From sequence record MH494197.1: a stretch of DNA of 64,000 bases. One strand, written 5' to 3'. The notes beneath the pieces are model-generated. The model was given only the letters and a program-made list of their open reading frames with translations, was not told where the DNA came from and searched no databases. Both the position numbers and the translations under genes were made by a program. The DNA comes from Escherichia phage CMSTMSU. Positions 16,162-36,130 of this stretch are shown one piece after another. Within the stretch, counting starts at the first letter, position 1; every line of letters starts with the position of its first letter.

Positions 16162-16205
16162 AGGGACTCCATTAAAAATAATATCAATCCCATAATATAC
16201 GATTC

Positions 16206-16380
16206 ATATAAAAGTCAATAACATTTTATTCGTAATACCCTTTATCGAAGTCGCTAAGGTTACCCGCCCTTTAGCCCCTACGCATTTTGCCATAGTCCAA
16301 TCCTTTTATTCATAAAAGTCAAGGGATTACCTATGCATTTTTTAACGCTGAAGTTTAAAAATGCCTTGACTTTTTATGAT
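16206..16380. repeat. TCATAAAAGTCAA repeats (two direct, one inverted) in ORF-free region
   Basis: Copies at about 16206 and 16312 (direct) and 16365 (inverted TTGACTTTTTATGA). Confidence 0.45.
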
Positions 16381-16877
16381 TCAGTACTAAATCCTTTTAC
16401 GCATTAATCCTTCGTTACGCTTACGATTATCTGTGTATCCCCATAGTCCTGCCATACTTCCACGCCAGCCGTCGCCCGGTTAGTCGTGCTGTCATCTGCT
16501 TAATGGTCTTAGGCTTTAGTGGAACCTGTTGCAGTACTGTACGCATAGTATCATCGACGTTATCGTGTACGCCTGCAATAGTGCCTAGGACGCTGTATAC
16601 GTGTATAGAACATATGTATGCCCTCCTGATATAGTTAAGGCCGCTACAAGGCGGCCTATGATGTTTGGTGATGTGTAACGCTTACAGTCCTAAGATAGTG
16701 CGTGCTTCGTTACGTTCCGTGCACAGCTGCATGATGTGAGCAAGTAAGTCCTTGCTAATGTATCCGGTGTTCATAGCTTCACGAATAGATACATCATAAG
16801 CACCGAACCCGTGCGAACGATACGCACATCATTCAGGTTAGTATTATAGATACCGCCGAGATCAACGGCTTCGAATA

Positions 16878-17498
16878 CTACATCAACAGAATATTCATTG
16901 TTGCCATCGTGGAAGTTTTCCAGTGCAATAGTATTGGATACCGCCCAACGTTTGCAGTTTCAATGATGCGGCACTGTTCCGGTTGGATAGTGCCATTACT
17001 TACAGCGTACTCCAGTGCATCTTTACCAAAAGTCCGAGCCAGTACTAAAACGTCAGCGAAGGAAGTGATTGAGAAGGTCATGATAAAACTCCTTAATTTA
17101 GGAGGGAGAACCATTTCCTCTCTATGTAAAACATTATACATGAATCTAAGTACTATGCAAGTACTTTTACATTTTAATACCGGATTCAGGTAGCGGTGAG
17201 ATCCATATTCTGGATCGGTTTCGGTCCAGTACTGTAAATCGATAGTACCTTTCGCGTTAATCTTGTCTACCAGCTTATTCATCTTAGCGTATACTACGTC
17301 AGCATCGATGCGTTTAAAGCCAGTAGCTTTAGTGAAGTAGTAGTGATTTGCTTCACTATCATTAAGGATATACCGAGCACCGTTTGCCGTTTGTGCGATA
17401 ATGATTGAGTATTCTACGTTACGGTCGAGGCCGTCGATGAATACAGAGGAAACATTAGTACGGATGAAAGCTTTAACGATAGCGATTGAAGTAGTCAT
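16878..17498 (-). CDS. composite ORF: probably two frame-disrupted genes read through an embedded promoter/stem-loop cassette
   Basis: Conserved intergenic cassette (…ggagggagaaccatttcctctctatgtaaaacattatac…) lies inside the ORF at about 17090-17170. Confidence 0.3.
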   Translation of the reverse strand: MTTSIAIVKAFIRTNVSSVFIDGLDRNVEYSIIIAQTANGARYILNDSEANHYYFTKATGFKRIDADVVYAKMNKLVDKINAKGTIDLQYWTETDPEYGSHRYLNPVLKCKSTCIVLRFMYNVLHREEMVLPPKLRSFIMTFSITSFADVLVLARTFGKDALEYAVSNGTIQPEQCRIIETANVGRYPILLHWKTSTMATMNILLM

Positions 17499-18022
17499 TT
17501 TGAATCTCCTAACTTTGTGGGCCGTCGCACCATTGCCGCCCTACGAGATACATTATTGCAGTACTGATATACTTTGTCAATACTTTTTATTAATAGTTTT
17601 AGTTCCACCAGCAGATAGTTACTCACCGTTATTAACTATATATTTTGGATACACCTATGCACCCTGTGGGCTAGTTTTTGTCTATGCGTATATATAGCAG
17701 GACTGACCGAGTCAATCCCTTTTTATTCTTTTTGTTAGATGATTCTCCAATCATCAACGATCATGGTAAGATACCGAACCAGTGATTCGAGTGATTCGTG
17801 TTCTCGATAGTCTGCCGCTCCACCAGCGGTACAAGTACAGCCGATTAAGCCGTTTTGTAGTTCCGGATCTTTACGTCGATCTGGTTGGCTTTAGCTTCTT
17901 TCAGTACTTCAACCGGGCGAGAGCGATAGACATAATGTTTTACTCCAAACTATTGGCGGGAGAACTATTCCCCGCTCTATGTAAAACATTATACATTACT
18001 GGTTAGTACTGTCAAATAGTTT

Positions 18023-18280
18023 TTATGAAATATCTTCGATGTAGTCGGCCCATTTCATTTTTTCAGTACTGTCAATGGCTACCGGATTATTTGGATCAAA
18101 CCATTCACCATTACCGCAGTACATACCCACGGCTACGGTTTTATAGCCATCCCGGGCCGCACACCACGACATTGCACGATAGATATGGCCTTTAACTGGT
18201 TGCAGTACTGGTAACGTTTTATGGTCTTCTACGTAGGCCATAGCTTGTGGATTTACCCGATATTGTGTGAACTGTTCCAT
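18023..18280 (-). CDS. hypothetical protein (85 aa)
   Basis: Track ORF; TTGACA-N17 promoter-like motif just upstream at about 18300-18350. Confidence 0.5.
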   Translation of the reverse strand: MEQFTQYRVNPQAMAYVEDHKTLPVLQPVKGHIYRAMSWCAARDGYKTVAVGMYCGNGEWFDPNNPVAIDSTEKMKWADYIEDIS

Positions 18281-18716
18281 TATGTTTCCCCTTGTAGTTA
18301 GTAAAGTTATTACATCAGTACTATCAAGCTATGTCAATAGTACTGAAATAAAACTTTTAGATTAGATTATTGAGGCCGTCAATGGTAGACTCACTTTCTT
18401 CTTTCTCCCATTGTCGGTAGTACTTCCATGCTTCATGATAGGTGGCGATCAGTTCATCTTTTGATCCGGTTACATGCCAGTACTGAATCACGGTGAGCGG
18501 TGTTATAGATAGAATCGAATGATTTCTTCTCTTCTGCCGTTAGCTACTTCCCGCATCAGTTCATCAAAGTTAGCCATTTTATTACTCCTTTTAGTGGGGA
18601 GGATATCTCCCTATGCAAAACATTATACTTTGTTTTAGTTATTATGCAAGTACTTTTTCATATAAACATTAAATTCTACACCGCCGTAACCTTCCACGAT
18701 GATATGTTTTGCGTTA

Positions 18717-18902
18717 TCACGTTTGCACATAGTGAAACCATCGTTTACGTGTTTTGCATTTTCGGGCGACATCACCGATAGCGGCACATACGGCACTAAT
18801 AACAGTATTCCGCAAAGTACTGGTATCATTGGCGGTCATAGTAGTTTGCAGTACTACGTTGTCGTATACGTGTGCATTGATAGTGATTTCGATAGTGTTC
18901 AT
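18717..18902 (-). CDS. hypothetical protein
   Basis: Track ORF immediately downstream of a promoter cassette; overlapping frame 18635..18829 suggests a frameshift. Confidence 0.4.
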   Translation of the reverse strand: MNTIEITINAHVYDNVVLQTTMTANDTSTLRNTVISAVCAAIGDVARKCKTRKRWFHYVQT

Positions 18903-19233
18903 GGTGTATCTCGACTGGCGGGAGAACTATTCCCCGCTCTATGTAAAACATTATACGTTAATCTAACTACAATGCAAGTACTTTTAAATTTTATTTCCGA
19001 TATAGTCCGGTCTATTCTTTTCGGTCATACGCTTTGCTAATGTTTGCATATGGCTTATTGCTTGTAGTGTATCCTCTTCCGGGATGAATCGAGATAATCA
19101 GGATCATTCTTCACCTTGCAATGATTATGATAGCGTAGTACTGCCAGTACTTTTTAACTTCTTCTACTGTCATAATAAGTACCCACTTCGTTAGCTTTCA
19201 GGTTAGTATCAATCATCAGTGGATTTTTGTAGT

Positions 19234-19440
19234 TCACAAAACGAGTAGTTTTCTCGATAGCGAATCCCATATAATCCAGCTTACTAACAGTACATTCATT
19301 CTTAAAACTTCTTTCGCTGCATCGATGGCTGATTGCATGGATAACCGACCATCTAAATTAATGTTTCCAAATGATCCACCAGCAGAAGTAGGATTACCGT
19401 TCATATCTTTAATGATCATAGTAGCGGAGTAGCTGGACAT
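19234..19440 (-). CDS. hypothetical protein (C-terminus probably frame-disrupted)
   Basis: Starts right after cassette at about 19455-19530. Confidence 0.4.
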   Translation of the reverse strand: MSSYSATMIIKDMNGNPTSAGGSFGNINLDGRLSMQSAIDAAKEVLRMNVLLVSWIIWDSLSRKLLVL

Positions 19441-19454
19441 AATTTTGTTTCCTT

Positions 19455-19530
19455 TTATTGGTGTGGGAGAACTATTCTCCCTTGATGTAAACTATTATAC
19501 AGTACTGATATACTTTGTCAAATACTTTTA
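19455..19530 (-). promoter_or_regulatory. promoter + stem-loop cassette (copy)
   Basis: ttgacaaagtatatcagtactgtataatagtttacatcaaGGGAGAAtagTTCTCCC on the minus strand. Confidence 0.55.
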
Positions 19531-19621
19531 TTCGCCCATATAGATTAGATTATCATCGCCTACATAGGATCGCAAACGTTGATTTCTTCGCAGTACTTCG
19601 TGAATACATCGCCATAGTGAC

Positions 19622-19858
19622 CTAAACCACGATCCCAAAACCAGTTCCGTGACCTTCGCGGGTAAGGAACAGATCATGACCAGCTTGCTCATAACCGTAA
19701 TCAATAAACATACCGCGAACTACTTCCAGATCATTACCGTGTTTCTCAATGAAGCGAGAACATGCAATCACTGCCGCTTGATGGGCTTGCTCTGATAATT
19801 CATAATCTTCCGTAATCGCCGTTCTCATTGTGTACAGTACTGAATTGCATAGCTTCAA
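19622..19858 (-). CDS. hypothetical protein (fragment of a longer frame-disrupted gene, about 19560..19935)
   Basis: An upstream ATG with MSTTTNLARN… and a downstream extension …GFWDRGLGHYGD lie in other frames. Confidence 0.45.
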   Translation of the reverse strand: MKLCNSVLYTMRTAITEDYELSEQAHQAAVIACSRFIEKHGNDLEVVRGMFIDYGYEQAGHDLFLTREGHGTGFGIVV

Positions 19859-20339
19859 TGTAAGCTACAACCATTGCAGCATGATTTTTATCGTTAGTGA
19901 TGTTCCGAGCGAGATTAGTAGTAGTAGACATGATTTTATTCCTTTTAGTATCGGGGAGAACTATTCTCCCTTGATGTAAACTATTATACAGTACTAATAT
20001 ACTTTGTCAATACTTAATTACGTTTAAAATGATATGTGCCTTTATCATCCTGTACGCCCCATACTGATTTACCATCAACACCAGTGAAGCCGGATTGTAA
20101 TTCAATATGGAAACCATTATTATCAACTACAAAAACTTTTTATTTTCATCCCGATAACATTGATATTCTGAATCAACATTAAAGGCCGCATCATTCAGAA
20201 GATTAGAAGCGTAAATGCAAGTCATTGTAGTCATGATTTTATTCCTTATTGCCGTGGAACCGTTCCTCTCGATATAAAACATTATACTTGATTCTAAGTA
20301 TAATGCAAGTACTTTTTAAAATAGTTTTCAGTACTGAAT

Positions 20340-20440
20340 ACTTATATAATAGATACACTTCCGCACCCTATGGGTCAGTGAGTTATCTCTCAATGGATAT
20401 ATATAGCAAAGGACTGACCGAGTCAATCCCTTTTTAATCT
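20340..20440. repeat. ~90-bp repeated intergenic element (core GCACCCTATGGG…ending in hairpin + T-run)
   Basis: Near-identical copies at about 17642-17730, 23585-23665, 28068-28165; partial copies at 25866, 34322 and inverted at 32715. Confidence 0.55.
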
Positions 20441-20507
20441 TTTTATCGTGTTACCTTACTTGCTGCCACATCACGCTTTTTATAGTACTGATTCCAGATA
20501 TTGCTGG

Positions 20508-20825
20508 TTAAACCGTAATCAAGTACTTTAATAAGTCCATTACGATCCCGCCGATATTCTGTTTTCTGATATCTCTTATCGTTAGTGTTGATAATGTATC
20601 ATCGACGTGTTGTAGTGCATCAGCAAAGCGGTGCTGGCGTTCAATGGCATTACGTTTAATATTGTACTTTAATTCATTGCACGCGTTTACGTGCTTTACA
20701 CTGCCTTTACTTGCAGTACTCAACCGATCCATAACGATAAACATATTATCAGGATCGCATAAATGCATATGCACCTTTGCAAAGTACTGTTTCAACTGAG
20801 GGCGGTCATAGTCTAAAAATTCCAT
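20508..20825 (-). CDS. hypothetical protein (105 aa)
   Basis: Track ORF, minus-strand block. Confidence 0.5.
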   Translation of the reverse strand: MEFLDYDRPQLKQYFAKVHMHLCDPDNMFIVMDRLSTASKGSVKHVNACNELKYNIKRNAIERQHRFADALQHVDDTLSTLTIRDIRKQNIGGIVMDLLKYLITV

Positions 20826-20891
20826 ACCTTACATTCAGTTTCATTTTGTTCGACACCCGCATCACAATTCGCGACCTTAATCACTAACCGA

Positions 20892-21080
20892 TCATTTAAA
20901 GCGAAAACTATACGGGAAGATCCGCCCGATGATCTCCAGTCCAGCTAACCGACAAGCTGAAAGGATCTCTTTGTTGGTTTCCATTTCTGACAGTGTACGG
21001 ATGAATTTAGTATAATTACGCATTGCATGTTCTCCTTGAGTTAATGAAACTATATTACAGTACTTTACTATCAATGGCAA
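20892..21080 (-). CDS. hypothetical protein
   Basis: Track ORF. Confidence 0.4.
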   Translation of the reverse strand: MPLIVKYCNIVSLTQGEHAMRNYTKFIRTLSEMETNKEILSACRLAGLEIIGRIFPYSFRFK

Positions 21081-21296
21081 CTACTTTTTAACATTAACGG
21101 CGTGAATCACTTCCTTAGTGTTTTTAGTACTGAATACTTTCGCCGCTCCTTGTTCGACCGTGATACGATAGCGACCATTAACATCAACCATATTAATAAA
21201 GTCCGGCGTGCTGAATGGTGTTGTTTTGCATTTGAGTACTGTTAACAGTTCCACCAGCGATGTAGTTTCTTTGATACGTTTTTCTAAAGTAATCAT
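21081..21296 (-). CDS. hypothetical protein (71 aa)
   Basis: Track ORF, tightly abutting the neighbouring gene. Confidence 0.5.
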   Translation of the reverse strand: MITLEKRIKETTSLVELLTVLKCKTTPFSTPDFINMVDVNGRYRITVEQGAAKVFSTKNTKEVIHAVNVKK

Positions 21297-21434
21297 TTTG
21301 TTTCTCCCCGTGTTGGTATGTACATATAGTACTAAAACATTTGAGTACTGTCAATTAGATAATATTATATTTCTTAAAATAAAATGCGTCTTGTGTTGGT
21401 TGATACTCGATACCGTTACCGTTATTGACTTCAA

Positions 21435-21629
21435 CTAATAAACCTTTGTCAATAAGTTTTTAATAGTACGATACCCTTGTTGAAAATTGGTAAAATGTGA
21501 ATCATTACGAAAGGTATAACCGTGCTTAACTGCTTCATCAATAGTTTTCTTTTCGATTTTAGATAATTTCATTTTGTTTCTCCCGTGTTGGTATATGTAC
21601 ATAGTACTAAAACATTTGAGTACTGTCAA
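21435..21629 (-). CDS. hypothetical protein
   Basis: Track ORF; the likely start is the internal MKLSKIEKK. Confidence 0.4.
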   Translation of the reverse strand: MTVLKCFSTMYIYQHGRNKMKLSKIEKKTIDEAVKHGYTFRNDSHFTNFQQGYRTIKNLLTKVY

Positions 21630-22423
21630 CGTGATATTAGTTTTATTTTCTTATTGTATTGTTGATGCTCATAAAGGTTTATCTTTCCTGTGTTCTCGAT
21701 TACTATCCTGTTGTTAGTGTCCACATCGATTACACGCAGTTTCCGTTGCTTAACTTCCGGGTAATAGGTTACCATTAATAAACTCATTAGCAAGCTGTAC
21801 GGCCTTTGTGATGATTCTCTTCGGTGCTTTATAGTGTACCCGTAAGATGTTATCTTTATATAGTTGAACCTTAATCATTTTGTTTGTCCTATAAAAAGGC
21901 GGGAACTGATCCCGCCGTGTTGTTAGTACTGCAAGTTATTAGATAACCGGCGGCGTTTACTGTATACTGTTACACGATTACCCTTACGGTCGTGTCGGAT
22001 CTCTTTCTGGTTGCGAATCAGTTCACTTGGACGCTTAAGGTTTGCCGTGATCCGCGTGAGTCCATGCATTGGCATTTACCTGTACTTTGATATCAGAACC
22101 AGCGATAAACTCATCTTGTGCGTCAGTATTGCCGCCAGCATATCCGCTCGTTTTAGTTCTGCTGCTGTTAGTACTGGCTCAGGTGAATTCACAATATCAG
22201 AGATCTTTGAACTGTACGGCCCAGCGTTGGCCTTTCGGTGCATCTTTGCCCATGTCTTTAAATGCTGCTCCTTCCTCGCGTGCAACAATACGGGCAGCTT
22301 CACGGGTAGCGTAGAATTTAGTAATCATGGTATACATCCTATTAGTTAAGTTAGTACTACAAGTTAGAGTCTATTATAAAGTACTATCTGGGCAATGTCA
22401 AATAGTACTTTAAATGGATTCTA

Positions 22424-22624
22424 TTACATGTCTTTCTTACGTTTTACATCGTGGTAGCGAACTGTTATTTCTTTGTTGATCTCTTCCTCGATGCGGTGAA
22501 TAACTTTTTCTTTCGGGTTGAAACCTATAACGGTTTCTTTAATGATCTCAAGCCCGTGTATTCGCCTTGTGTACCGTAACCGTATGTAAAGGTTTCGTGT
22601 CCCGTGTCTTCCAGCGGTCGCCAA
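22424..22624 (-). CDS. C-terminal fragment of the preceding gene
   Basis: Overlapping same-strand ORF in a different frame. Confidence 0.35.
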   Translation of the reverse strand: MATAGRHGTRNLYIRLRYTRRIHGLEIIKETVIGFNPKEKVIHRIEEEINKEITVRYHDVKRKKDM

Positions 22625-22745
22625 TTAACGCAGACACGTAGCAAGAGTGGTAAGTATTGCCGTGTGAATCAGTCCACCGATTAACGTTAATGTCAAAGGA
22701 GGTTACAATTTTCAATTCTACTTTCTGGGCAAGGATCATAGCCAT
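22548..22745 (-). CDS. hypothetical protein with RWTDSHGNTYHSC motif (frame-disrupted; continues in 22424..22624)
   Basis: Motif shared with the gene at about 29.7-30.0 kb; starts after cassette 22765-22826. Confidence 0.4.
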   Translation of the reverse strand: MAMILAQKVELKIVTSFDINVNRWTDSHGNTYHSCYVSALIGDRWKTRDTKPLHTVTVHKANTRA

Positions 22746-22764
22746 TTTATTTCTCTCTTTTAGT

Positions 22765-22826
22765 TAGGAGGAACCATTCCCTCACTTGATGTAAACTATT
22801 ATACAGTACTAAGATACTTTGTCAAT
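22765..22826 (-). promoter_or_regulatory. sigma70-type promoter (TTGACA-N16-TATAAT) plus 5' stem-loop cassette
   Basis: Minus strand: TTGACA 22820-22825, TATAAT 22798-22803, then inverted repeat GGAGGAACC/GGTTCCTCC before the ATG. Confidence 0.6.
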
Positions 22827-22843
22827 ACTTATTTTTGGAAAGT

Positions 22844-23008
22844 TTACGCATTAATTCTACGCTTTCTTGTGAACGTTTTGCTACCGGCAAGCTGCATGGG
22901 TAGTAAACATTTTGTATAGTCTGACGCTTTGCCACCGAACCGAGCGGCACGTTCACGGGCACTTGGAACTAATACTATTTCTTTCTTGCAGATAGTGCAC
23001 TTAGCCAT
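22844..23008 (-). CDS. hypothetical small protein (54 aa, MAKCTICKKE…)
   Basis: Hand-translated; below the track cut-off; ATG directly after a promoter cassette. Confidence 0.4.
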   Translation of the reverse strand: MAKCTICKKEIVLVPSARERAARFGGKASDYTKCLLPMQLAGSKTFTRKRRINA

Positions 23009-23666
23009 TTTATTTCTCTCTCTTTGTTAGAGGGGAACCGTTTCCTCACTCGATGTAAACTATTATACAGTACTAAGATACTTTGTCAATACTTAATTAT
23101 TGTAAATGTCGTGAATAGTGATAAAGTTTTTACGACCGTAAACCTGCAAATCAATATCAATGTAGTGCTTATCTAGTACATCCTCGACGCTTAACGCGGT
23201 GTCGTGGATATCTTCGTAGAATTGAGTATCTACAATCTTGCTTAAGTCATCCGGCGTTAACTCATCGTTAAGCAGTTGAACCGCCGGATATCTGCTTCAC
23301 GTTTCCAGTCTTCCAGTTAGTAGTCAGTACTTGTTCGATTTCGTTAGCTGTCAGTAGAATCCGCATTTTTATGTTTCCTTATCAGTGGTTGATGTAAGTA
23401 TTATACTCGTTTACTTTCTATTGTCAAACTATTTTATCAGGGAGTTTTTCGTATGTCTTACTCGACTACTTAACGGGGTTACTTGTTTCGTTCCCCGTCC
23501 TGATGTAAAACATTATACTTGATTCTAAGTACAATGCAAGTACTTTTTAAAAATAGTTTTCAGTACTAGCCACCAGCAAACAATAGATACATTTATGCAC
23601 CCTGTGGGCTGATTTGTTTCTATGCGTATATAATAGCAAAGGACTGAATCCCTTATTCAATTATTT

Positions 23667-23816
23667 TTAAACTTCTTTCGGGTTGCGATAGGTGATAGCG
23701 TTCGGGTACATTTGTTTAATGTTATTCCATGCCCGGTTGACATTGTAACCACTTGATCGAATCAGTTGGTTACTACCGACACCTTGAAACACTACTTCGA
23801 ATAAGAATTCTTTCAT
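23667..23816 (-). CDS. hypothetical small protein (49 aa)
   Basis: Hand-translated; SD GAGGTGA 6 nt upstream of ATG. Confidence 0.45.
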   Translation of the reverse strand: MKEFLFEVVFQGVGSNQLIRSSGYNVNRAWNNIKQMYPNAITYRNPKEV

Positions 23817-24351
23817 GCTTTCACCTCGCGATCTGCTTTACCTTTACGCCGACATTACTAATTGTTCGCGTTGCCATAAGTCGAGTGATACAAAAGTTTT
23901 GCGGTATCACTTTTAGGATACTCGCCATTAGTACCTAACCGATAAAACAGATCTTTCAGTACTGATAATTCTACTTGGATCATTATACTTTCTCTTTGTT
24001 GGGAGGGAACTATTCTTCCGATATAAAACATTATACACTTTATTCAGTACAAGTACTTTTAATCTTTCAGCCAATGATCCTGAATGAATTTTTCACCGGA
24101 ACCTTGCTGCATTGATTGTAACAGACGTTCACGATGAGCGGCGGCGAATTGCTCAGTACTATGCGTTACACCGGTTGATATCTGGATTCACCATTGGGGC
24201 TGATGTATTGTACATCCCACGGTTTTTCGTTAGTATCAGACCATTTACGAACGATTAGTTGACCTTGCATTTTTCTTTCTCTTAGTGGGGAGAATCATTT
24301 CTCCCCTTCATGTAACTTATTATACAGTACTAGATTATCTTGTCAATAGTT

Positions 24352-24636
24352 TTATTCACCTTGTTTGAATTTAGTTTTCTCCATTGATTCCATGATTGCA
24401 ACCAATACGCCGTGGATCTCGCTTAACGCGGAATCACTAAAAGCATTAATGAATAGTCGATCATTCTCGCGAATATTTTTAATGTACTTTTCAGCAGTAG
24501 TTGCGAATTCATTCAACGGTAGATCAAATGCTTTATCCCATGATGGATGGCGTAATTGTAACAGTACTGGATTATCACGATCACGGGAAAACGTACCAGT
24601 GATGAAACATACGCCCGAATACTTTCGAACTGGCAA
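24352..24636 (-). CDS. hypothetical protein (94 aa)
   Basis: Track ORF. Confidence 0.45.
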   Translation of the reverse strand: MPVRKYSGVCFITGTFSRDRDNPVLLQLRHPSWDKAFDLPLNEFATTAEKYIKNIRENDRLFINAFSDSALSEIHGVLVAIMESMEKTKFKQGE

Positions 24637-24994
24637 CGGACTTCCTTTGTGATAGTAGTATGAATGTACATTTATTGTTATCCTCTATTAAATTAATATT
24701 ACAGTTTATGAATCAATTCTTTATCTAAGCGATAGCGTACATTATTAATAGTAACGGCATTGTTTTAATGCTACGCTGTACAGGTCCACCAGCAATAACA
24801 AATGTTGCTTTATTACCCCGAACAATGATAGCACTTCCGTGATTACCGAAATCATCTTGTACTAAAATACTTGATAAGTTTTCCATTTTATTTCTCTTAG
24901 TAGGGAAGATGTTTCCTTGATGTAAGTACTATAACAGTACTGAAAACTAATTGCAAGTACTATGATAAAATCATGATAGGATATTCACTATCGA

Positions 24995-25279: not shown

Positions 25280-25462
25280 TGTCAGTAGTACGCGTGATAT
25301 GTTGTATTCCCATGATTTCTATCCTCAGTTAAGATATAAAACATTATACACTATCTTTCAGTACTGTCAATTACTTTTATCTCATAGATCTATGCCAACA
25401 ATTACGCGGATCTCTTTAAAAGTACTATCATGATCCTCCGGCAAGTAATACAATACATGCAC

Positions 25463-26160: not shown

Positions 26161-26258
26161 ACGTCCTGTAACGCATTCTAACGAGATAAACGGTTGAGTA
26201 CTGGCATTGTATAGGGTAATGATTAAAGCCCACCAGCGTTAACCAGTGGGCTATAATC

Positions 26259-28067: not shown

Positions 28068-28165
28068 ATAGATACACTTATGCACCCTGTGGGCTAGTGA
28101 GCTATCTCTCAATGAATATATAATAGCAAAATGGCTGACCGAGTCAACCACTTTTTCATTTATTT
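28068..28165. repeat. ~90-bp repeated intergenic element (copy)
   Basis: atagatacacttatgcaccctgtgggctagtgagctatctctcaatgaatatataatagcaaaatggctgaccgagtcaacc. Confidence 0.55.
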
Positions 28166-28271
28166 TAGCTTTTAGAATCGCCGCCTTTCGCGTCATGCCT
28201 TGCTTGATGTATTCTGTACTTTCGCTTTACGTGCATTCGCTTTATTTGCTTTCGTAAACGCCGAACAACTT

Positions 28272-28529
28272 TTATAGTTTAAACCTGTTGGATTCATTTA
28301 AATCACCATAAAGAATAGATAGGTTACTAACAACGCCGCGATCAATGCACCGACCGAACTGTAATAAGCTAATGATCTCATTTTTAGCCTGAAAATAATG
28401 TTTAATTTGAGCGGCGGTCAGTGCACAATTACGCAGGAAGTTTTCTGTATAACTTTTGCGAGTACTGAAAGAGAATTGACCTTTGCTGCTGCCGATAGTA
28501 ACATCAAACCGAGCGTTGTATTGTTTCAT
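28272..28529 (-). CDS. hypothetical protein (85 aa, start MKQYNARF)
   Basis: Track ORF trimmed to the ATG that follows the promoter cassette (ggagaaacaaaATG). Confidence 0.45.
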   Translation of the reverse strand: MKQYNARFDVTIGSSKGQFSFSTRKSYTENFLRNCALTAAQIKHYFQAKNEIISLLQFGRCIDRGVVSNLSILYGDLNESNRFKL

Positions 28530-28544
28530 TTTGTTTCTCCTGTT

Positions 28545-28625
28545 ATTGGGGAGAATCATTTCTCCCTTCATGTAAAACATTATACAGTACTAAAACTAAT
28601 TGCAAGTACTATTTTTAGATTTACG
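28545..28625 (-). promoter_or_regulatory. promoter + stem-loop cassette (copy)
   Basis: …ttgcaattagttttagtactgtataatgttttacatgaaGGGAGAAatgaTTCTCCCC… followed by ATG 28529. Confidence 0.55.
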
Positions 28626-29691
28626 CAAACTTTCTACCATCTCAGGAGTAAGGTCTGCGGGTAGGAAACTACTTCATCAACGAAACGTAAAGGAATACCC
28701 CAGCGAAAGGTGAACGTGCTTTCTTAGTATTACTCTTTTTGATGCTTTCATTTCATATTCTTAATTAGTGGGGAGAATCATTTCTCCCTTCATGTAAAAC
28801 ATTATACGCGTTTAAAACTAATTGCAAGTACTATTTGAAAGTAAATGCTCATACGCTACATTAACTACGTTTTCAATAACCGACTGTACAGAAAGATCCC
28901 CACTTCCGGCTATAGTAGAAATCGCTTACAGTAGTGTCATCGTATGCAAATACTTTACCGTGACTGCATCAATCACATACATATTAACCTTTAAGATGTC
29001 GATCTTATCCTGTACAGTAAGCATATTAATTAACCTTTTAAGTACTGACTTAAGTAATCTTGTTGATCTTCGGTGATTGCAGCCATCTTCCCTAGTACTG
29101 GATTAATGATATAATCCCTGTAACGTCCTGTAACGCATTCTCAGGCGGTTTAACGGCTGGGGTAGCCATAGCCATTGCCGACTTGTTCGACGCTGTAACG
29201 CTCATAAAGGCGGCATTCTTCCGGTGTTAACATAGCATCAATGCGTTTCATTGGTTTAATGATGCTTTCGATCTCATTCAGTACTTGATTAACGTTCATG
29301 GTATAATCCCAATATAAGCGGCCTAAATCGACCGCTAACGATGTTTTGATTAATAGGTGTATGGTTGACGTTCAAACAATGATTGCACGTTGTACGCCCC
29401 GCTTATGGGCTTTGCTGGTAAATCAATTTTATATTGTTCACGCTTAAAGATAATAAAACGGCAATTGTTTTAACATCAAAATTGATTGAACGTTCCGAGT
29501 TTACCATCGTGCACAAATACAAGATAACCGCTCGCTACTTGTTTTGTAGTACTGGTTGCAACCATAGACCGCCGAACATGTGTACCTGCGTCGATTAAAG
29601 TACTGATATTTTTCATTTTACTATCCTCTTAAGTTGATTTAATTTCTTTCCCTATGCAGACACTGTACCAAAGTATCTGCATAAAGTAAAG

Positions 29692-29973
29692 CTAATTAAA
29701 GATCTTTTTACGTTTTACATCCTGTACAGTACAATGCAACGGGATAGACAAATCATTGCACAAACGATAGAGGGAGGTTTCATCAGTATTAAGCCCGTCT
29801 ACTGATTCCTTTAAGAGAGATAACGCCGTTTGTTGGTATGCATCTTCATAGCCATAAGTAAATGATTCAACCGCCAGATCATTCAAGCCGTTATCCAGTT
29901 CGACGCTTACATGACAAGAATGATGTATTGCCATATGAATCAGACCAACGTTTACCGTCAACATTGATTGCAC
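29692..29973 (-). CDS. hypothetical protein (fragment; paralog of 22548..22745)
   Basis: An upstream frame encodes …VDGKRWSDSYGNTS…, the same motif as the 22.6-kb gene. Confidence 0.4.
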   Translation of the reverse strand: MQSMLTVNVGLIHMAIHHSCHVSVELDNGLNDLAVESFTYGYEDAYQQTALSLLKESVDGLNTDETSLYRLCNDLSIPLHCTVQDVKRKKIFN

Positions 29974-30338
29974 GGATTGCAGCCGAAACGGTGTTAATGA
30001 TAGTTTTAGCCATTTTAGTATTCCTTAAATTAATATGTGTCGTCTTGATAAAATCTATTATGCCAGTACTATCAAACTATGTCAATAGTACTGTGATAAT
30101 ATTTTTACTTACTTTTTGCTTTCTTTATTGCTTCCACCGGTCGGCCCATTCTTTACCCCATACTTGTAAATTATAATGGTACTGGCAAAGTGCAACGCCC
30201 CGCTTTAAACCAGTAATAGATTTTTACCACATTGACAAGTTTTCATTTTAGTTTCCTTGTAGTGGGAGAACCATTTTCCCCTTGATGTAATGTATTATAC
30301 TTTATTCGATTTACTTTGCAAGTACTTTTTAATTTAAT

Positions 30339-30551
30339 TCATCCGTAAAGGATACGCTCAACGCCCAAATCAGTTAAACTAATCGACGGCACTTGATAGG
30401 TTTCAATGTATGCTACACTTGCCCACTGACCGAACTCATTAACGGCCGTATTCATTGCATTTTGCAATTCCACACCTTCCTTGTTGGTAATGACTGCAAC
30501 TACTTGTTCGTTGCCAGTAGTACCAGATACGCGAGTAATGATAATAGCCAT
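30339..30551 (-). CDS. hypothetical protein (70 aa)
   Basis: Track ORF directly downstream of a promoter cassette. Confidence 0.5.
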   Translation of the reverse strand: MAIIITRVSGTTGNEQVVAVITNKEGVELQNAMNTAVNEFGQWASVAYIETYQVPSISLTDLGVERILYG

Positions 30552-30619
30552 TTTTTAATTCCTATTCAGTAGTTGATGTATGTATTATGCCAGTACTTAA
30601 AACTATTGTCAAACTATTT

Positions 30620-30772
30620 TTAAAGTTTATCAATGATTGATGCCGTTTCATTGATAGTCTTGCCGTGTTTTGCACACGCGATAACTGCTTTAAATTCCTT
30701 TGATGACCAATCTTTCTTACTGCATACTGACATTACTTGTAAAGTAAAACAATCCAGTTCATAAGTATTCAT
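30620..30772 (-). CDS. hypothetical small protein (50 aa)
   Basis: Hand-translated; MNTYELDCFTLQVMSVCSKKDW…. Confidence 0.4.
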   Translation of the reverse strand: MNTYELDCFTLQVMSVCSKKDWSSKEFKAVIACAKHGKTINETASIIDKL

Positions 30773-30985
30773 CTTTATATCCTCAGTTAGTTAAGGTGTC
30801 TGCCTTGATGTAATTAATTATACGCTAATCTCTTAATCGTGCAAGTACTTTTATTACTTTTTGCAAAATACTTTAAACGCTCTCAATCGCATTACAACGA
30901 CCTTAACGCCACCAGCTAGGCAATGCATCAGATAATCAGTTTAAAGCGTTAGAATCGTTTCTAGGCGGTGCTGGTGGCGTAAACG

Positions 30986-31015
30986 ATAAAAAAAGCCCAC
31001 CGTTTAAGGTGGGCT
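30986..31015 (-). terminator. rho-independent terminator (minus strand)
   Basis: Minus-strand AGCCCACCttaaacGGTGGGCT followed by TTTTTTTAT; 13 nt after the stop of 31028..31261. Confidence 0.6.
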
Positions 31016-31027
31016 AGTGATTCAGTT

Positions 31028-31261
31028 TTATGCTTCAACTTTGCGATGAGCTTCGATCCATTCCTCGCGAGTCATACCACTGGAGTTAATCGCGTCCAGT
31101 ACTACCGCAATGCAGTTACCACGCACCGGAATCAGATATTCTTCCCGTTGTACTACCGCTACGCGTTCCTGAATCCATTTTTGGCTTTTACTTCTGGCTT
31201 GTCTTCCCATACTTAACCGCCGTGGCTTTTGTGCCATCTCTGTAACTACTTCCAGATCCAA
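31028..31261 (-). CDS. C-terminal part of the preceding gene
   Basis: Overlapping frame; ends 13 nt before terminator hairpin. Confidence 0.4.
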   Translation of the reverse strand: MDLEVVTEMAQKPRRLSMGRQARSKSQKWIQERVAVVQREEYLIPVRGNCIAVVLDAINSSGMTREEWIEAHRKVEA

Positions 31262-31406
31262 CTACTGCCGCCTGAATACTTTCGATTGTTGCTTGTAGTT
31301 CTGCTTCACGGGCCGCCTTTGCCGCTTCAATTTCTGCCGCTTTATTTGCTTGTAGTTCTTTCGCAGTACTGTAAGCGATGTTAAAATTATTGCGTACCGC
31401 TTTCAT
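31188..31406 (-). CDS. hypothetical protein, Ala/Glu-rich N-part (frame-disrupted; continues in 31028..31261)
   Basis: Overlapping same-strand ORFs; gene followed by a terminator. Confidence 0.4.
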   Translation of the reverse strand: MKAVRNNFNIAYSTAKELQANKAAEIEAAKAAREAELQATIESIQAAVVGSGSSYRDGTKATAVKYGKTSQK

Positions 31407-31691
31407 GGTATCGTTATCCAGTTCAGCCGGATCTCAGCCGCGACGTTAGTTTCATTTGCACCAGTGCTTTGATGAATGATTTTACATTAGCCATTTTATA
31501 AATCCTCAATTAAAGTTTAGTTTACGTTTATTAGTGTATCAAAGTTTTCTGACGTGTCCAGTTTTTCGTTCGACTTACTGGCGGTCTACTTAGTGCTCCC
31601 CGTCTTGATGTAATACATTCTACGCCTTTTTGCGGTAATGTCAACTACTTTCTTAAAACTATTTTCAAAGTATCTCAGTACTACGATACTA

Positions 31692-31717
31692 CAAAACAAA
31701 AAGCCCACCCGTGGGCT
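31692..31717 (-). terminator. rho-independent terminator (minus strand)
   Basis: Minus-strand AGCCCAC-GGGTGGGCT hairpin followed by TTTTTGTTTT. Confidence 0.5.
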
Positions 31718-31979
31718 GTATTAATCAGTAAGTAAAATATTAAACACTTTACCATTTAACGTTATTGGTGCACTGCTACCGTGCTCAAGATCCGTTAGTA
31801 TACCTGCAATCGCTTTATCATTGGCGACCTTTCCAGTGTCCAACAGTACGACAGTACTGATAAGATTAACGCTCGTTTCAATATCATAATGCACGGCGTT
31901 AAGGAGTTGTGTATACTGCTTTCGTTAAGTAAAACTATTCGTGCTGTCATGATGTACCCGTAGTATCTATCAACGGCAA

Positions 31980-32267
31980 TTAATAACGCCGGAATGCGTT
32001 ACTTTCAGTATCCATAACAGTGACCGAACCGCGTTTAGTACTTGCATCGTAATAAATTGTCGTGCTACCTTTTTCGTCTTCTTCATGGAACGGCCCGTTT
32101 TTAAATGCTTCTGGCTGGATCTCTAAATCCTTTAAAACAATCTCGCCAGTACTTTCATTGGTCATCGCTACAGTGCACTGAATGAATTTTTCACTACTTA
32201 CATCTAACGACGCATTAACAGCGAAAGAGGAAACAGATAAAGCCGTGGCGATGATTGCAATTTTCAT
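31980..32267 (-). CDS. small secreted/periplasmic protein with N-terminal signal peptide
   Basis: MKIAIIATALSVSSFAVNA-SLD: hydrophobic core plus AxA cleavage-like site. Confidence 0.55.
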   Translation of the reverse strand: MKIAIIATALSVSSFAVNASLDVSSEKFIQCTVAMTNESTGEIVLKDLEIQPEAFKNGPFHEEDEKGSTTIYYDASTKRGSVTVMDTESNAFRRY

Positions 32268-32677
32268 TTGATTATCCTTAGTTACGGGAACCGCTCTTGC
32301 GATGTAAAATATTATACAGTACTAAAAACTATTATCAAGTACTTTATGATTTTTATAAAACATTTCAGCAGTGATATTTTACCCGTTGGCTGTACTTTAT
32401 CCAGAATTTTTGATGTCCGGCCGTCCAAATGAATATGATCCGTAAACCGTAAACCAGTAGTTACCCTCAGTGTTTACATGTACAGCATAATAGGGAACGC
32501 CCGCGATTCATCACTAGTAAAGTGTGCTACCGTTCCGTTACATTCGCAGACGTTGATTTGATTTGTTCAAGCATTTTATTATTCCTTAGTTACCGTGGGA
32601 ACTGCTCCTATGCAAAACATTATACGCGTTTAAAACTAATTGCAAGTATTTTAATAAAAGTATTTGAAAAATAGTTG

Positions 32678-32706
32678 TTGACAAGTGCATCCAGTACTGG
32701 CATAAT
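32678..32706 (+). promoter_or_regulatory. plus-strand consensus promoter (TTGACA-N17-CATAAT)
   Basis: TTGACA 32678-32683, CATAAT 32701-32706; faces a terminator about 100 nt downstream. Confidence 0.4.
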
Positions 32707-32712
32707 TACTAC

Positions 32713-32815
32713 ATCAAGACGAAACAGTCACTAACCCACCGGGTGCATAGATCCGTCTATTAAATGATTCAGTACTGAAAAGTAACGGGAGTTATTATCT
32801 CCCCGTTGTTATTTT
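32713..32815 (+). ncRNA. candidate small RNA (promoter to terminator, about 100 nt)
   Basis: No ORF; ends with hairpin AACGGGAG-ttattat-CTCCCCGTT + T-run; contains the repeated GCACCCxxTGGG element in inverted orientation. Confidence 0.25.
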
Positions 32816-33029
32816 GTGGTATAAACAGAAGTCGCCTTTATTTGCTACGCCGCCAGTGTAACGCGAGGAATAGTCACCCGACTTCTGCTATTACCAGTGT
32901 ATCATCATTCAATTCGCGCAAACGGCTGGATCTTGTACGCCGATTTTGTCGGCATGTTCCCGCATAGATTTAACCAGTGCTTCCAGTTGGGAAAGAGTAG
33001 TGATATTAGCCATTGTATTTTCTCATTAC

Positions 33030-33100
33030 CGTGGAGAACCATTTCTCCCTTTGATGTAAAACATTATACAGTACTGAAAACTAATTGCAAGTACTTTTTA
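33030..33100 (-). promoter_or_regulatory. promoter + stem-loop cassette (copy)
   Basis: Same conserved TATAATGTTTTACATCaa + GGGAGAA/TTCTCC module. Confidence 0.5.
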
Positions 33101-34750
33101 ATATTGTTTGTCGTCGTCTTCCTCGATGAATTGACCGACGAAATGATCTACTTTCGCTTTGAGGCTTTTATAATCTTCTTCTACTTCCTTTAAACGTTCC
33201 GTAGTATTCCAGTGCCTCAACATATGCGGCCTCAGCCGTTTTCTCACGCATAGCTAAATTCATTCCACGCGTTTCATCAAATAGCCAAAACCATCGGTGC
33301 ATTCACTGATAGACAATGATTTGTTTAACACATTGTACTTTATTACTTTACTCATTAGATAACCTCAGTAAAGGCGGGAACTATTACCCGCCTCGATGTA
33401 AAGTATTATACGCTTTTAAACTTAGTTTGCAAGTACTTTTAAATTAATATTCGATTGATTCTACTACGCCATCAATAACATTGAATTGATACTCGTTTCA
33501 ATCAGTGCCGTAATGTTTTCCAGTAGTGAATTGATCCTCATATGCATTCTCTAAATCACGGTACAACTTGCGGGACAATTCACGAATAGTGTCAGTGAGT
33601 AGTTCCTCAAGCTCATTAACTAACGTTTTTGTTTTGCGGTTAAATCCAGTGTAAGCCGATTCAATGTACCCGCTTACAGTATTCTTGAGTAGTGGGAGTG
33701 CGAACGCTTTACACTCATCGCCAAACCATCTTCATTCAGCAAGTGACGGATTGAGCGATTAGTTAATGCTTTACCTTGCGTAAAACTTCACTGCGTCAAC
33801 GTGGTCAGTACTGATTGATGCACCGTCCCCGGGACCAAAAGCCACTGAATCGTAAATCAGCGTCATTAATGCCATATTCCGGTAGTACTGTTTCAGTATT
33901 CATTTCACTTTCAGAAAAATAATCATCGTTTAAGTTTTTTCACGTTCCCGAACCAGTTCGATAGCTGACGTTTGTTGTTCTGCGTTCAATTCAGAAAAAT
34001 CCATAACGAAAGTAGTAGTAGTGATAGTTTTCATTTTGTAACCCTCATTCAGTAGTTGATGTAAGTATTATACGCTTTAAAAACGTCAAACTATTTTATC
34101 AGGGAGTTTTGTGCCTATTCCTCGGCTACTTAACGGAAGTTACTTATTTGTTCCCCGTCCTGATGTAAAACATTATACGCCTTTAAACATAGTTTGCAAG
34201 TACTTTTAAAAATAGTTTTCAGTACTGAATATTAAAAAGTATTGACAGCATTATCAGTACTAATATAATTCCCATGACAACAGCTAACCCACGGTGCAAT
34301 TGTAACTGTAATAAACTTTTTCTAGATACACTTCCGCACCCTATGGGCTACGGCTTATCTGCCAATGAATACATTATGCCAGTACTGACAAAATAAGTCA
34401 ATACCGGCAATTGTAAAGATTTGTAAACTGCTTATACTGCAATCGCGTCCGTGCTATAATAATAATAAGTGCTATGGTGTGACTTACCTTTTATTTCAGT
34501 ACTGAATGAATCCGAACGATTTGCATATGATGTTAATTTAAAGTACTTTGATTTGTTGATACGTTACACCACAGATCCGCGTAAGTAGTTTTATTAGTGG
34601 TAGTATCTTTACGGTTTTAACTTCAGTCATATACATATTAGTCATTTTTATTACTCCGAGTTATAGGGGAACTATTCCCGCTCTCGATGTAAAACATTAT
34701 ACGCTTTTAAACTTAGTTTGCAAGTACTTTTATTCAAGTACTGCAATCTT

Positions 34751-34975
34751 TTAGTACGGTACACGGTCACGCGGTTGCTTTCGGTCGAGCTTTATTTCTA
34801 CCACTCGACGCGATACACTATCAGGACTTTTCAACGCCGCTAACCAGTACTGTAATGATCTGGCTGTACTACGCTTTACAATGGCCCAACGTTTACCACG
34901 TTCCGATTGTACGCCCATATCTTTAAACGTTGCCCGTCCGGCGTGCTGCGATCCGAGCTTGTTCACGCGTCGCAA
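34751..34975 (-). CDS. hypothetical basic protein
   Basis: Track ORF. Confidence 0.4.
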   Translation of the reverse strand: MRRVNKLGSQHAGRATFKDMGVQSERGKRWAIVKRSTARSLQYWLAALKSPDSVSRRVVEIKLDRKQPRDRVPY

Positions 34976-35348
34976 AATACTTAATATTCATGTTGTTCTT
35001 ATCGTTGGTGTATGAATAAACACTATTATAAAGTACTATCATCGTGCAATAGTACTTTAAATCTATTCTATTACATTCCAACCATTGCAGCACGGATCGA
35101 TAGTGCTATATTTGAATCCGTCCGGTGTTTTTCTTGTCCAGTCTGTTCTAAAAAATAACATCATATGACGGGCCGCATCATTGCGATTAGTGCTATCGTT
35201 AATAAAGTCCCAACTGGTATAATGATTCATCGTTATTAATCCAAAGGCTTACATTCCAATGAGTTTTGTTTTTGTGACCTAAGAACATTTTGATTTAGCC
35301 ATTTTTAATCTTATATAGTGGGGAACTATTTCACCCTGATGTAAAACA

Positions 35349-35576
35349 TTATACGCTTTTAAACTTAGTTTGCAACTTTATTAAACTTATTTGTAATTTT
35401 GCACTGTCAGCCCATACTGTGAAACGATGCATATTATCCCATGCATCTTGTTTTAAATTTAAACTGTGCAATTCCTCAGTAGTTGCTATCCCCATTGGCT
35501 TACTACACACCGCGAAATTTTTCTCCATGTACTGATAAACCATCGTTAAATCATTTGAGATCATTACATGGATCAT
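35349..35576 (-). CDS. hypothetical protein
   Basis: Track ORF. Confidence 0.4.
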   Translation of the reverse strand: MIHVMISNDLTMVYQYMEKNFAVCSKPMGIATTEELHSLNLKQDAWDNMHRFTVWADSAKLQISLIKLQTKFKSV

Positions 35577-36130
35577 TGAATCAGCTATGAAGTAGCGTAT
35601 TGTTCACGCACGGCAACGGTTCCCGATAAGCTGTAAATGTGAATTTTACAGTTTCAGCCGGAAGACCTTTCATTTCACGGAAGTTAACCGTGTTAAGCAT
35701 GATTTTATTGATTTGAGTCGCCATCGTTTTAATCTCTTAATGTAGCGGGAAGTGTTCCTGCCTCGATGTAAAACATTATACGCTTTTATCAGTATGCAAG
35801 TACTTTCTACAAATACTTTTAAAATAGTTTTCTCTATATAGGGAACTATTATTCAGTACTGCAACCATCCGTGGGAACTATCTTTCTATAGTAGTACTAT
35901 TATTCAGTACTGAATCAATCCACCAAATCATCCTGATACCCGTAAAACGGCCTCAGACGCATTCTAACGCATTAATACACCTAAGCTATACATTTGCACC
36001 ATTCCAATCTTGGCTGGGCCGTTTAAACGCGTTAAATTATTTTCAATTATTTTGTTTTAGCTATTGACTCAGTACTAAAAAGCGTATAATTACACATAGA
36101 CGCGAGAAAGGAAACCAGAGGGTGCGGAAT

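Follow-up and report, generated by a model that had tools for sequence, protein, structure and literature searches.

We analysed a stretch of 64,000 nucleotides of Escherichia phage CMSTMSU (sequence record MH494197.1; "the window" below means this whole stretch) and found that a GC-richer block, which represents one copy of a direct terminal repeat (DTR), carries 31 co-oriented copies of a cassette in which a near-consensus sigma-70-type promoter sequence is followed by a short G/C-rich inverted repeat and the ATG of a small gene. Comparison with related phages identifies the inverted repeat as a hairpin conserved in structure in the predicted 5' untranslated region (UTR) of each message, and the cassettes themselves coincide with many of the places where the terminal repeats of close relatives differ in gene content.

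Copy number and anatomy of the cassettes

A search of the window with the 16-mer TATAATGTTTTACATC gave 34 matches at up to three mismatches, compared with 3.9 ± 2.3 in shuffled sequences (the largest shuffle gave 11). When a position-weight matrix covering -45 to +20 was used, 31 cassettes were recovered; every one is on the minus strand, their TATAAT elements spanning 17,138-36,955, and none was found on the plus strand or in the rest of the 64 kb. Thirty of them fall within 16,200-35,820 and the remaining one is at 36,955, in good agreement with the 30-35 minus-strand copies estimated in the initial annotation. The scan and inspection also bore out the proposed anatomy of promoter consensus, inverted repeat, A-rich linker and ATG. 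Each cassette consists, in order, of an A-rich tract, a -35 element (TTGCAA or TTGACA), 16 bp, TATAAT, the invariant AT-rich stretch GTTTTACATC, the inverted repeat, and an A-rich linker carrying AAGGAG-like Shine-Dalgarno sites, and the ATG lies about 50-60 nt past TATAAT; the 16-mer TATAATGTTTTACATC stands between the 16 bp and the inverted repeat. Since 10-12 of the 12 hexamer positions agree with the consensus, the spacer is 16 bp long and an A-rich tract precedes the -35 element, we regard these sites, referred to as class A, as near-consensus sigma-70-type promoters that are presumably active. The cassettes are about 100 bp long, share one orientation, are spaced 0.3-0.7 kb apart and make up about 17% of the DTR; the 21-kb DTR holds at least 42 promoter-like sites in all. 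Co-oriented cassettes were also found in relatives, with 31 in vB_Ec-M-J, 32 in WPEC3, 28 in G17, 35 in EJP2 and about 11 in Salmonella phage Munch. None of the GenBank records inspected annotates the cassette promoters or RNAs, and searches of the whole window with Rfam at gathering thresholds and with ARAGORN returned no RNA family and no tRNA, respectively.

The GC-richer block is a terminal repeat filled with unrelated small genes

By sequence similarity the window belongs to Asteriusvirus, the 121Q/PBECO4-like jumbo coliphages. In a megablast search of GenBank phages, positions 16,200-36,000 matched WPEC3, fEgEco12, Ecwhy_1, G17, 121Q and PBECO4 at about 95% identity, but the best coverage was 70% (WPEC3) and no record reached 80%, so the region is a mosaic among close relatives. 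The matching DNA is annotated as "Direct Terminal Repeats" (1-21,525) in the vB_Ec-M-J record, where its inner edge maps to about 16,258 of the window, and BLAST comparison showed that the linear records of vB_Ec-M-J, WPEC3 and G17 all terminate at the base equivalent to window position 37,292. Because of this annotation and the shared record ends, the block is best described as a DTR of about 21 kb (16258..37292) that was collapsed to one copy in the assembly, and it holds all the cassettes. Its base composition fits the same limits: the windowed GC content is 0.35-0.42 in the block, compared with 0.29-0.34 in the low-coordinate flank and about 0.32-0.34 just past 37 kb, which confirms the GC difference noticed initially; in vB_Ec-M-J the corresponding values are 0.386 for the block and 0.320 outside it.

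The window sequence carries many small deletions. Over 15,004-30,115 (about 15 kb) it differs from WPEC3 by 154 short deletions and 5 insertions, or about one deletion per 100 bp, and 93 of the 119 single-base deletions have a same-base neighbour, so that the excess is probably due to long-read assembly or homopolymer error. Such homopolymer deletions break most of the small open reading frames (ORFs) of the window and shorten the runs of G and C in the stems; stems and genes were therefore analysed in cleaner relatives with the help of their annotation.

The vB_Ec-M-J DTR contains 53 annotated coding sequences with a median length of 79 aa. Only three pairs of related proteins were found among them at E < 1e-3, and the 53 proteins were assigned to 47 PHROG families, all of unknown function, while the Pfam matches were limited to a DksA/TraR zinc finger, a ParE-like domain, a GNAT acetyltransferase and domains of unknown function. 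In this relative, at least, the genes behind the cassettes are thus mostly unrelated to each other, as had been supposed from the window. A class-A cassette precedes 30 of the 53 genes, with TATAAT mostly 53-62 nt ahead of the ATG. Most of the remaining genes have a different sigma-70-type promoter that lacks the hairpin, typically AGTACTA-TTGACA-N17-TGgCATAAT.

Conservation of the hairpin

In the window only 20 of 31 hairpins reach -6 kcal/mol. The hairpins were examined in 139 cassettes from five clean genomes (vB_Ec-M-J, WPEC3, G17, EJP2 and Munch), and in 112 of these a hairpin of at least 6 bp begins no more than 9 nt from the predicted transcript start. The first 38 nt have a mean minimum free energy (MFE) of -12.1 kcal/mol and a median z-score of -3.6 relative to shuffles. 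The stems are 7-10 bp long and G/C-rich, with an MFE of -11 to -16 kcal/mol, and are made of a G-run followed by a C-run with G·U pairs. There are 55 distinct hairpin sequences, with stem arms such as GGGGAGAA/UUCUCCCC, GCGGGAA/UUCCCGC, GUGGGGAA/UUCCCCAC, GAGGGGAA/UUCCCCUC and GGGGGAA/UUCCCCC. The loops occur in 23 variants of 3-7 nt; the 5' arm is always purine-rich (G/A), and the loop-proximal GAA/UUC is nearly invariant.

Whether the stem is preserved by compensatory changes was the check suggested in the initial annotation, and the outcome supports a conserved structure. Alignment of whole cassettes with MAFFT and RNAalifold was set aside because differences in loop length mis-registered the stems, and MAFFT applied to excised hairpins pushed the gaps to the ends; for the pairing counts the 55 hairpins were anchored on the closing pair by a script. 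Pairing at the first eight stem positions is 96%, compared with 84% when each 5' arm is given the 3' arm of another cassette (0 of 5000 permutations). In a gap-free set of 24 hairpins with equal loops, used for the covariation count, 96.4% of positions are paired versus 82.8% after shuffling (0 of 500) and 56-69% in slid controls; both sides have changed in five of the eight pairs, and there are 27 compensatory cells, compared with 8.0 in shuffles (0 of 500) and 0-2 in slid controls. Among the 55 hairpins G·U pairs far outnumber A·C mismatches (34 vs. 8), which points to pairing in the sense-strand RNA. This pattern of substitution identifies the hairpin as a structured RNA element that is conserved in structure.

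The hairpin also keeps a fixed position. The distance from the end of the -10 element to the core stem is 14.0 ± 1.5 nt and that from the stem to the ATG is 21.8 ± 2.4 nt; the constant spacing to the -10 element ties the hairpin to the transcript start, and the stem would begin at about +2 to +6 from the predicted start. A U-tract (at least 5 U in the 8 nt after the stem) follows none of the 112 hairpins, and the mean is 2.1 U in those 8 nt. For lack of a U-tract the element is considered a 5'-UTR hairpin, and an intrinsic (Rho-independent) terminator was rejected. Intrinsic-terminator-like hairpins with a U-tract are found separately from the cassette hairpins, at 30994..31015 on the minus strand and also at 31717-31702 and 21916-21898, and the G17 record carries ARNold terminator annotations at the equivalent places of its DTR. 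Two other identities were rejected as well: RNase III sites, for which stems of 7-10 bp are too short, and lambda-type boxB sites, given the absence of a conserved loop and the presence of 30 copies rather than one per operon.

Recombination junctions in the cassettes

Comparison of three clean DTRs revealed 13 distinct structural differences, and in 7 of the 13 at least three of the four breakpoints lie inside class-A cassettes. At the junctions the flanking alignments overlap by 46-104 bp of homology, one chimeric cassette taking the place of two cassettes and a gene, and this homology covers the whole cassette, not just the inverted repeat. Two cassettes of the window, with TATAAT at 27,993 and 27,449, match a single chimeric cassette of vB_Ec-M-J (L001:23080). 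The former (27931..28033) and its gene have no counterpart in vB_Ec-M-J, and the latter (27387..27489, ATG 27395) is the other partner of the junction. In orthologous genes the stem-loops can differ between phages while the promoter half is unchanged, which argues for patchy gene conversion; the gene behind the cassette at 18893..18995 (TATAAT 18955, ATG 18902) has an ortholog with a different stem-loop in vB_Ec-M-J. The comparison of gene content between related phages, which had been proposed at the outset, therefore places swaps and indels at cassettes, and the alignments support the view that genes are gained, lost and replaced at the cassettes.

Distribution of the cassettes and comparison with known systems

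Matches to the cassette were found in Asteriusvirus (12-32 places per record), in the Salmonella jumbo phages Munch, SE_PL and PHA46, in Erwinia phage Hallingskeid and Klebsiella phage K64-1, and in rV5-like coliphages of about 145 kb. In JLBYU50 (Justusliebigvirus) at least 9 of 13 consecutive small genes are preceded by TTGACA-N17-TAnAAT, a GCGGGAA..TTCCCGC-type hairpin at the same distance, a Shine-Dalgarno site and the ATG; one rV5-like cassette is about 85% identical to those of Asteriusvirus, and the Vequintavirinae phage A73 has a typical class-A cassette. The rV5-like coliphages (Stephanstirmvirinae and Vequintavirinae) thus share the architecture, although they form an unrelated lineage with genomes of 140-150 kb in which the cassettes lie in an internal region. 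The occurrence of the same architecture in these unrelated coliphages suggests a function tied to the E. coli host, either to its expression machinery or to its RNA-decay machinery. The rV5 paper reports 33 sigma-70 promoters and mentions stem-loops only as terminators (PMC3606486), and our literature search found no earlier description of a 5' hairpin in Asteriusvirus or rV5-like phages. When IMG/VR was scanned for exact copies of the 16-mer, most of the matches were isolated chance occurrences in unrelated contigs, with 121Q and a few large contigs besides, and the result is uninformative on distribution. Thirteen "Campylobacter phage" records matched positions 16,200-36,000 in the megablast search, and three 146-kb records with this label (MG065639, MG065645 and MG065689) contain an rV5-like promoter segment (85.5% identity over 62 nt). 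The size of these three records fits the rV5-like group as well, and their host label may be wrong; they provide no evidence of a wider host range, since the 146-kb records share a promoter of rV5-like coliphages.

The cassettes had been compared initially with the promoter-early-stem-loop (PeSL) modules of T4-type phages. In a PeSL, a sigma-70 early promoter with an AT-rich tract is combined with a G/C stem-loop, and a Shine-Dalgarno site and ATG then lead into an ORFan of a hyperplastic region; PeSLs mediate indels and the formation of mini-circles, and the stem-loop is reported to terminate transcription (PMC2839356; PMC4122927). They are known from RB49/phi1, PST/T4 and nt-1/KVP40 (Arbiol et al., 2010, PMC2839356; Comeau et al., 2014, PMC4122927). 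The two systems have the same parts, namely a strong sigma-70 promoter with its AT-rich tract, a stem-loop built from a G-run and a C-run that includes G·U (G·T) pairs, and a Shine-Dalgarno site ahead of the ATG. Either kind of unit occurs in many copies in front of small ORFans within a plastic region, and in either case the indel junctions between close relatives fall in the repeats. The position of the hairpin differs. Of the five stem-loop positions described for PeSLs (upstream of -35, over -35, in the spacer, over -10 and just before the start), the spacer and -10 positions are the commonest (PMC2839356), and direct inspection of the RB49 sequence located its hairpins in the -35/-10 spacer or over -10, as in TTGACA-GGGGATCGGTGATCCCC-TATAAT; in this type PeSL phage the hairpin is proposed to stop transcription coming from upstream. 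In contrast, the Asteriusvirus hairpin always lies about 14 nt after -10, in its own 5' UTR and without a U-tract. The setting is also different, a DTR in Asteriusvirus and an internal hyperplastic region in the T4-type phages, so the T4-type context of the earlier comparison has to be abandoned. No T4-like phage was found with the cassette query (blastn "distant"), and no sequence similarity to PeSLs was detected. What stands of the comparison is a set of repeated promoter modules that mediate shuffling before ORFans; hairpin position and sequence relatedness do not agree. We concluded that, as DNA, the block behaves in the manner of a PeSL array without belonging to the PeSL family, and that its hairpin probably does a different job from that of the PeSL stem-loop.

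Terminal repeats full of tiny genes, many of which have a strong host-type early promoter and strong ribosome sites of their own, and which are expressed first after injection, are found in the SPO1 host-takeover module and the T5 pre-early repeat. SPO1 (a Bacillus phage) and T5 are unrelated to Asteriusvirus, as are the hosts, and to our knowledge neither a conserved 5' hairpin nor a repeated 100-bp cassette has been described in their terminal repeats. Closer in phylogeny are the Rak2-like jumbo phages PA5oct and CBB, which belong to the same clade and share the layout of a long DTR with small genes of unknown function, sigma-70-type promoters and a UP-like tract. The DTR genes of PA5oct are highly transcribed early from TTGAC/TATAATA promoters, as shown by RNA-seq (PMC7318152), and RpoD-like promoters with UP elements were reported in the early small-gene region of CBB (PMC5259590). 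Both papers give promoter motifs only: a word search for "stem-loop" and "hairpin" gave no 5'-UTR hairpin, and an account of cassette shuffling was seen in neither (PMC7318152; PMC5259590).

Possible functions of the cassettes

Judging from its position and from the analogy with PA5oct, the DTR is most likely an immediate-early region read by host RNA polymerase. We favour, with somewhat better than even confidence, a reading in which this immediate-early region is built from standardised cassettes whose hairpin acts as a 5' stabiliser and insulator, and which serve at the same time as recombination substrates. Host sigma-70 RNA polymerase would start within GTTTTACATC of each cassette, and the message would open with about 3-6 free bases, followed by the G/C-rich hairpin of 7-10 bp; beyond it, an A-rich linker free of structure would lead to a strong Shine-Dalgarno site and to the ATG with which a small ORFan begins. 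As a 5'-terminal RNA element, the hairpin would shield early transcripts from the decay that depends on the 5' end and involves RppH and RNase E, and it would leave the ribosome site open irrespective of the downstream gene. The repeats of about 100 bp would act as substrates for homologous recombination or gene conversion, by which genes are deleted, inserted or swapped. Protection of the 5' end is suggested because base-paired 5' ends slow RNase E (reviewed in PMC3997798). The same review cites the work of Emory, Bouvet and Belasco on the 5'-terminal stabilising stem-loops of the E. coli ompA and papA mRNAs (PMC3997798). These resemble the predicted cassette leaders in having a stable hairpin a few bases from the 5' end, ahead of an accessible ribosome site. 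They differ in being experimentally shown elements of single genes, whereas the phage hairpins are putative stabilisers that occur in more than 30 copies per genome with a predicted 5' overhang of maybe 3-6 nt.

Several points weigh against this reading. The start site of the cassettes is a predicted one, and in many copies it leaves 4-6 unpaired bases, which may be too many for full protection against RppH and RNase E. About one quarter of the DTR promoters lack a hairpin, so the hairpin is not essential for expression. The clustering of breakpoints may come partly from selection, if only intergenic junctions survive, and the shuffle statistics overstate the significance of the pairing, as the hairpins were pre-selected for a predicted fold and the copies are related. 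Lastly, the purine-rich 5' arm and the near-invariant GAA/UUC amount to a constraint on sequence as well as structure, and this may reflect a specific binding partner or recent common descent with gene conversion.

Such a constraint beyond pairing is what a tag for a trans-acting factor would show, a phage or host RNA-binding protein or nuclease that processes read-through RNA into monocistronic messages whose ends are uniform, shuts off early expression in favour of middle expression, or recognises a "self" mark during the decay of host mRNA. The conservation of the motif across unrelated coliphage lineages is in line with this idea, as is the presence in many 5' arms of GGAG, at which T4 RegB cleaves early messages. 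But GGAG is absent from many stems, the loops vary freely in sequence and length, and in the Pfam search none of the 53 DTR proteins had a domain for RNA binding or a nuclease domain, nor was a candidate factor found; we consider this explanation unlikely.

The hairpin may instead be an attenuator of the PeSL type, stopping or damping read-in from upstream cassettes so that output does not pile up along the array. PeSL stem-loops, with poly-G followed by poly-C and G-T pairs, cut reporter expression like a strong terminator (PMC2839356), and the composition of the present hairpins is the same. They would also fold in read-through RNA, and the promoters are very dense (at least 42 in 21 kb). 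The missing U-tract nevertheless argues against attenuation, and canonical terminators exist separately after some genes. In addition, each hairpin is locked to the start of its own promoter, which would be needless for damping transcription from upstream, while the RB49 hairpins are placed elsewhere, in the spacer or over -10. Taken together, we find an attenuator improbable.

The fixed distance from the -10 element could also reflect a co-transcriptional role, in which the hairpin forms once about 25 nt of RNA have emerged and aids promoter escape, blocks backtracking or keeps Rho from reaching C-rich RNA; early messages that are short and poorly translated would thereby be completed. The C-rich 3' arm is always sequestered, and nascent-RNA structures next to early phage promoters can modify RNA polymerase, as in the case of HK022 put (PMC9378689). 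A simple 8-bp hairpin, however, has none of the put features (two long stems and a triplex), and the proposal overlaps the stabiliser model; we give it little credence. Least probable of all is that the inverted repeat acts as DNA, with the RNA fold incidental, either as the operator of a dimeric repressor that shuts the early promoters or as a cruciform or recombination signal. The repeat does occupy about +5 to +25, where operators are classically found, recombination junctions coincide with it, and the crossovers of RB49 PeSL mini-circles were mapped to the loop (PMC2839356). But the half-sites differ between copies and yet co-vary (GCGGGAA, GGGGAGAA, GUGGGGAA, GAGGGGAA), a variation that one DNA-binding protein could not accommodate, the bias toward G·U over A·C shows that pairing is kept only on the transcribed sense strand, and the junction homology spans the entire cassette rather than the repeat alone.

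Positions of the cassettes and of other promoters in the window

The class-A cassettes of the window were located by the position-weight scan together with a hairpin and ATG check, and all lie on the minus strand (positions of TATAAT and ATG in brackets, in this order). The promoter nearest the terminus, 36893..36995 (36955), has a different structured leader and no nearby ATG. It is followed inward by 35718..35820 (35780, 35724), 35291..35393 (TATAAT 35353), 34639..34741 (34701, 34645), 33348..33450 (33410, 33355), 33006..33108 (TATAAT 33068), 32562..32664 (32624, 32574) and 32254..32356 (32316, 32267), by a promoter at 30760..30862 (30822, 30772) whose hairpin is weak or absent, and by 30237..30339 (30299, 30246), 28744..28846 (28806, 28756), 28522..28624 (28584, 28529) and 26957..27059 (27019, 26961). 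The class-A promoter at 25286..25388 (25348, 25313) has no hairpin, and the cassette at 24872..24974 is degenerate, its -10 element at 24934 being damaged in the window and intact in relatives. Further inward are 24262..24364 (24324, 24270), 23973..24075 (24035, 23983), 23005..23107 (23067, 23008), 22741..22843 (22803, 22745), 20224..20326 (20286, 20234), 19926..20028 (19988, 19931), 19437..19539 (19499, 19440), 18565..18667 (18627, 18577) and 17931..18033 (17993, 17933), and the innermost copy is 17076..17178 (17138, 17081). The cassettes in the recombination junction and those with a longer leader are described with these features.

The second promoter class without hairpin, AGTACTA-TTGACA-N17-TGgCATAAT followed by AGATTTTATCAA or a similar sequence, is represented at 30057..30085 on the minus strand, and copies or variants are found at 30612-30584, 26732-26704, 26474-26447, 25953-25925, 34401-34373, 22401-22373, 21629-21601, 21354-21326 and 17580-17552 on the same strand. 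A third repeated leader motif, AGCCCAnAGGGTGCnnAAGTGTA, occurs about 30 nt past the hairpin-less promoters at 34401-34373, 28147-28120 and 25953-25925 (minus strand) and may be another small structured element.

A palindrome, AGTACT (often as TCAGTACTGA or AAAGTACTTG), is found 257 times in the window, compared with 20.8 ± 4.5 expected, and is three times commoner than any other palindromic hexamer. It is dense at 16.4-43 kb, sparser up to 64 kb and clustered at 8.8-10.9 kb, and it is absent from 0.05-8.8 and 10.9-16.4 kb. In the DTR of a clean relative its density is 11.8 per kb in intergenic DNA versus 4.1 per kb in coding DNA, where it has no strong frame preference. It abuts the -35 element, and often the -10 element, of the DTR promoters, and outside the DTR it is not promoter-bound.

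The two ends of the DTR have their own layout. The terminal stretch at 35850..37292 (equivalent to L001 31,825-33,583, where no gene is annotated in vB_Ec-M-J) is rich in repeats: the outermost 1.5-1.7 kb or so contains tandem AGTAATCAAA units, GGCTAGA(C/T)GG-type repeats and many CAGTACTGA sites, and the physical terminus closes with a short inverted repeat (GGCAGACTTCCTCTGCC). On the inner side of the DTR boundary (window positions below 16,258, for example 15,000-16,200; L001 1-12,058) the layout switches to a long run of genes of about 70 aa with overlapping stops and starts, and here cassettes are missing, the GC content is lower (0.32) and AGTACT is almost absent.

A conserved leader with a predicted Y-shaped fold

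Two or three class-A promoters are followed by a structured leader of about 76 nt. On the minus strand of the window the leader occupies 34164..34091 behind TATAAT 34177 (whole unit 34091..34217, followed by a second promoter) and 23504..23429 behind TATAAT 23517 (23400..23557, with a second promoter, TTGACA-16-TATAAT, at 23427..23400), and a divergent variant is found at 31609..31534 behind a promoter with TAGAAT at 31622 (31534..31662). The leader begins with AUCAGGACGGGG and closes with CCCCUGAUAAAAUAG, and the second promoter stands between leader and gene. RNAalifold predicts a Y-shaped fold with an outer stem AUCAGG/CCUGAU and two hairpins, which is supported by a single compensatory pair. 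The leader is conserved at 95-100%, and is unannotated, in about 40 Asteriusvirus records, and copies with 88-95% identity are present in the rV5-like phages muut, EmilieFrey, A5-4 and A73. It has no Rfam match, and a relaxed search gave noise only. In size and position it appears similar to the HK022 put RNA. The hairpin at about +5 and the Y-shaped leader might together form an early-message code shared by unrelated large coliphages (Asteriusvirus, Stephanstirmvirinae and Vequintavirinae), that is, mobile modules read by a specific factor. A host or phage factor would then mark early mRNAs for protection or timed destruction, or would modify RNA polymerase in a put-like manner, and the elements would be more than passive stabilisers; this extension is rather unlikely in our estimate.

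Implications for Asteriusvirus and related coliphages

Much of what is described here is consistent with the known organisation of phage early regions, while our literature search found no description of the 5' hairpin shared across lineages or of the conserved leader RNA. If the favoured reading is correct, the cassettes are natural "plug-and-play" expression units with which a giant phage can try small host-takeover or anti-defence genes, express them at once and discard them, and this would explain the mosaic terminal repeats among Asteriusvirus genomes that are otherwise 95% identical. For engineering, the cassette copies would also provide a compact natural set of strong E. coli promoters that come with insulators in the 5' UTR. 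The shared hairpin architecture, the 85%-identical cassette and the 88-95% identical leader in rV5-like phages point to an exchange of modules between co-infecting phages.

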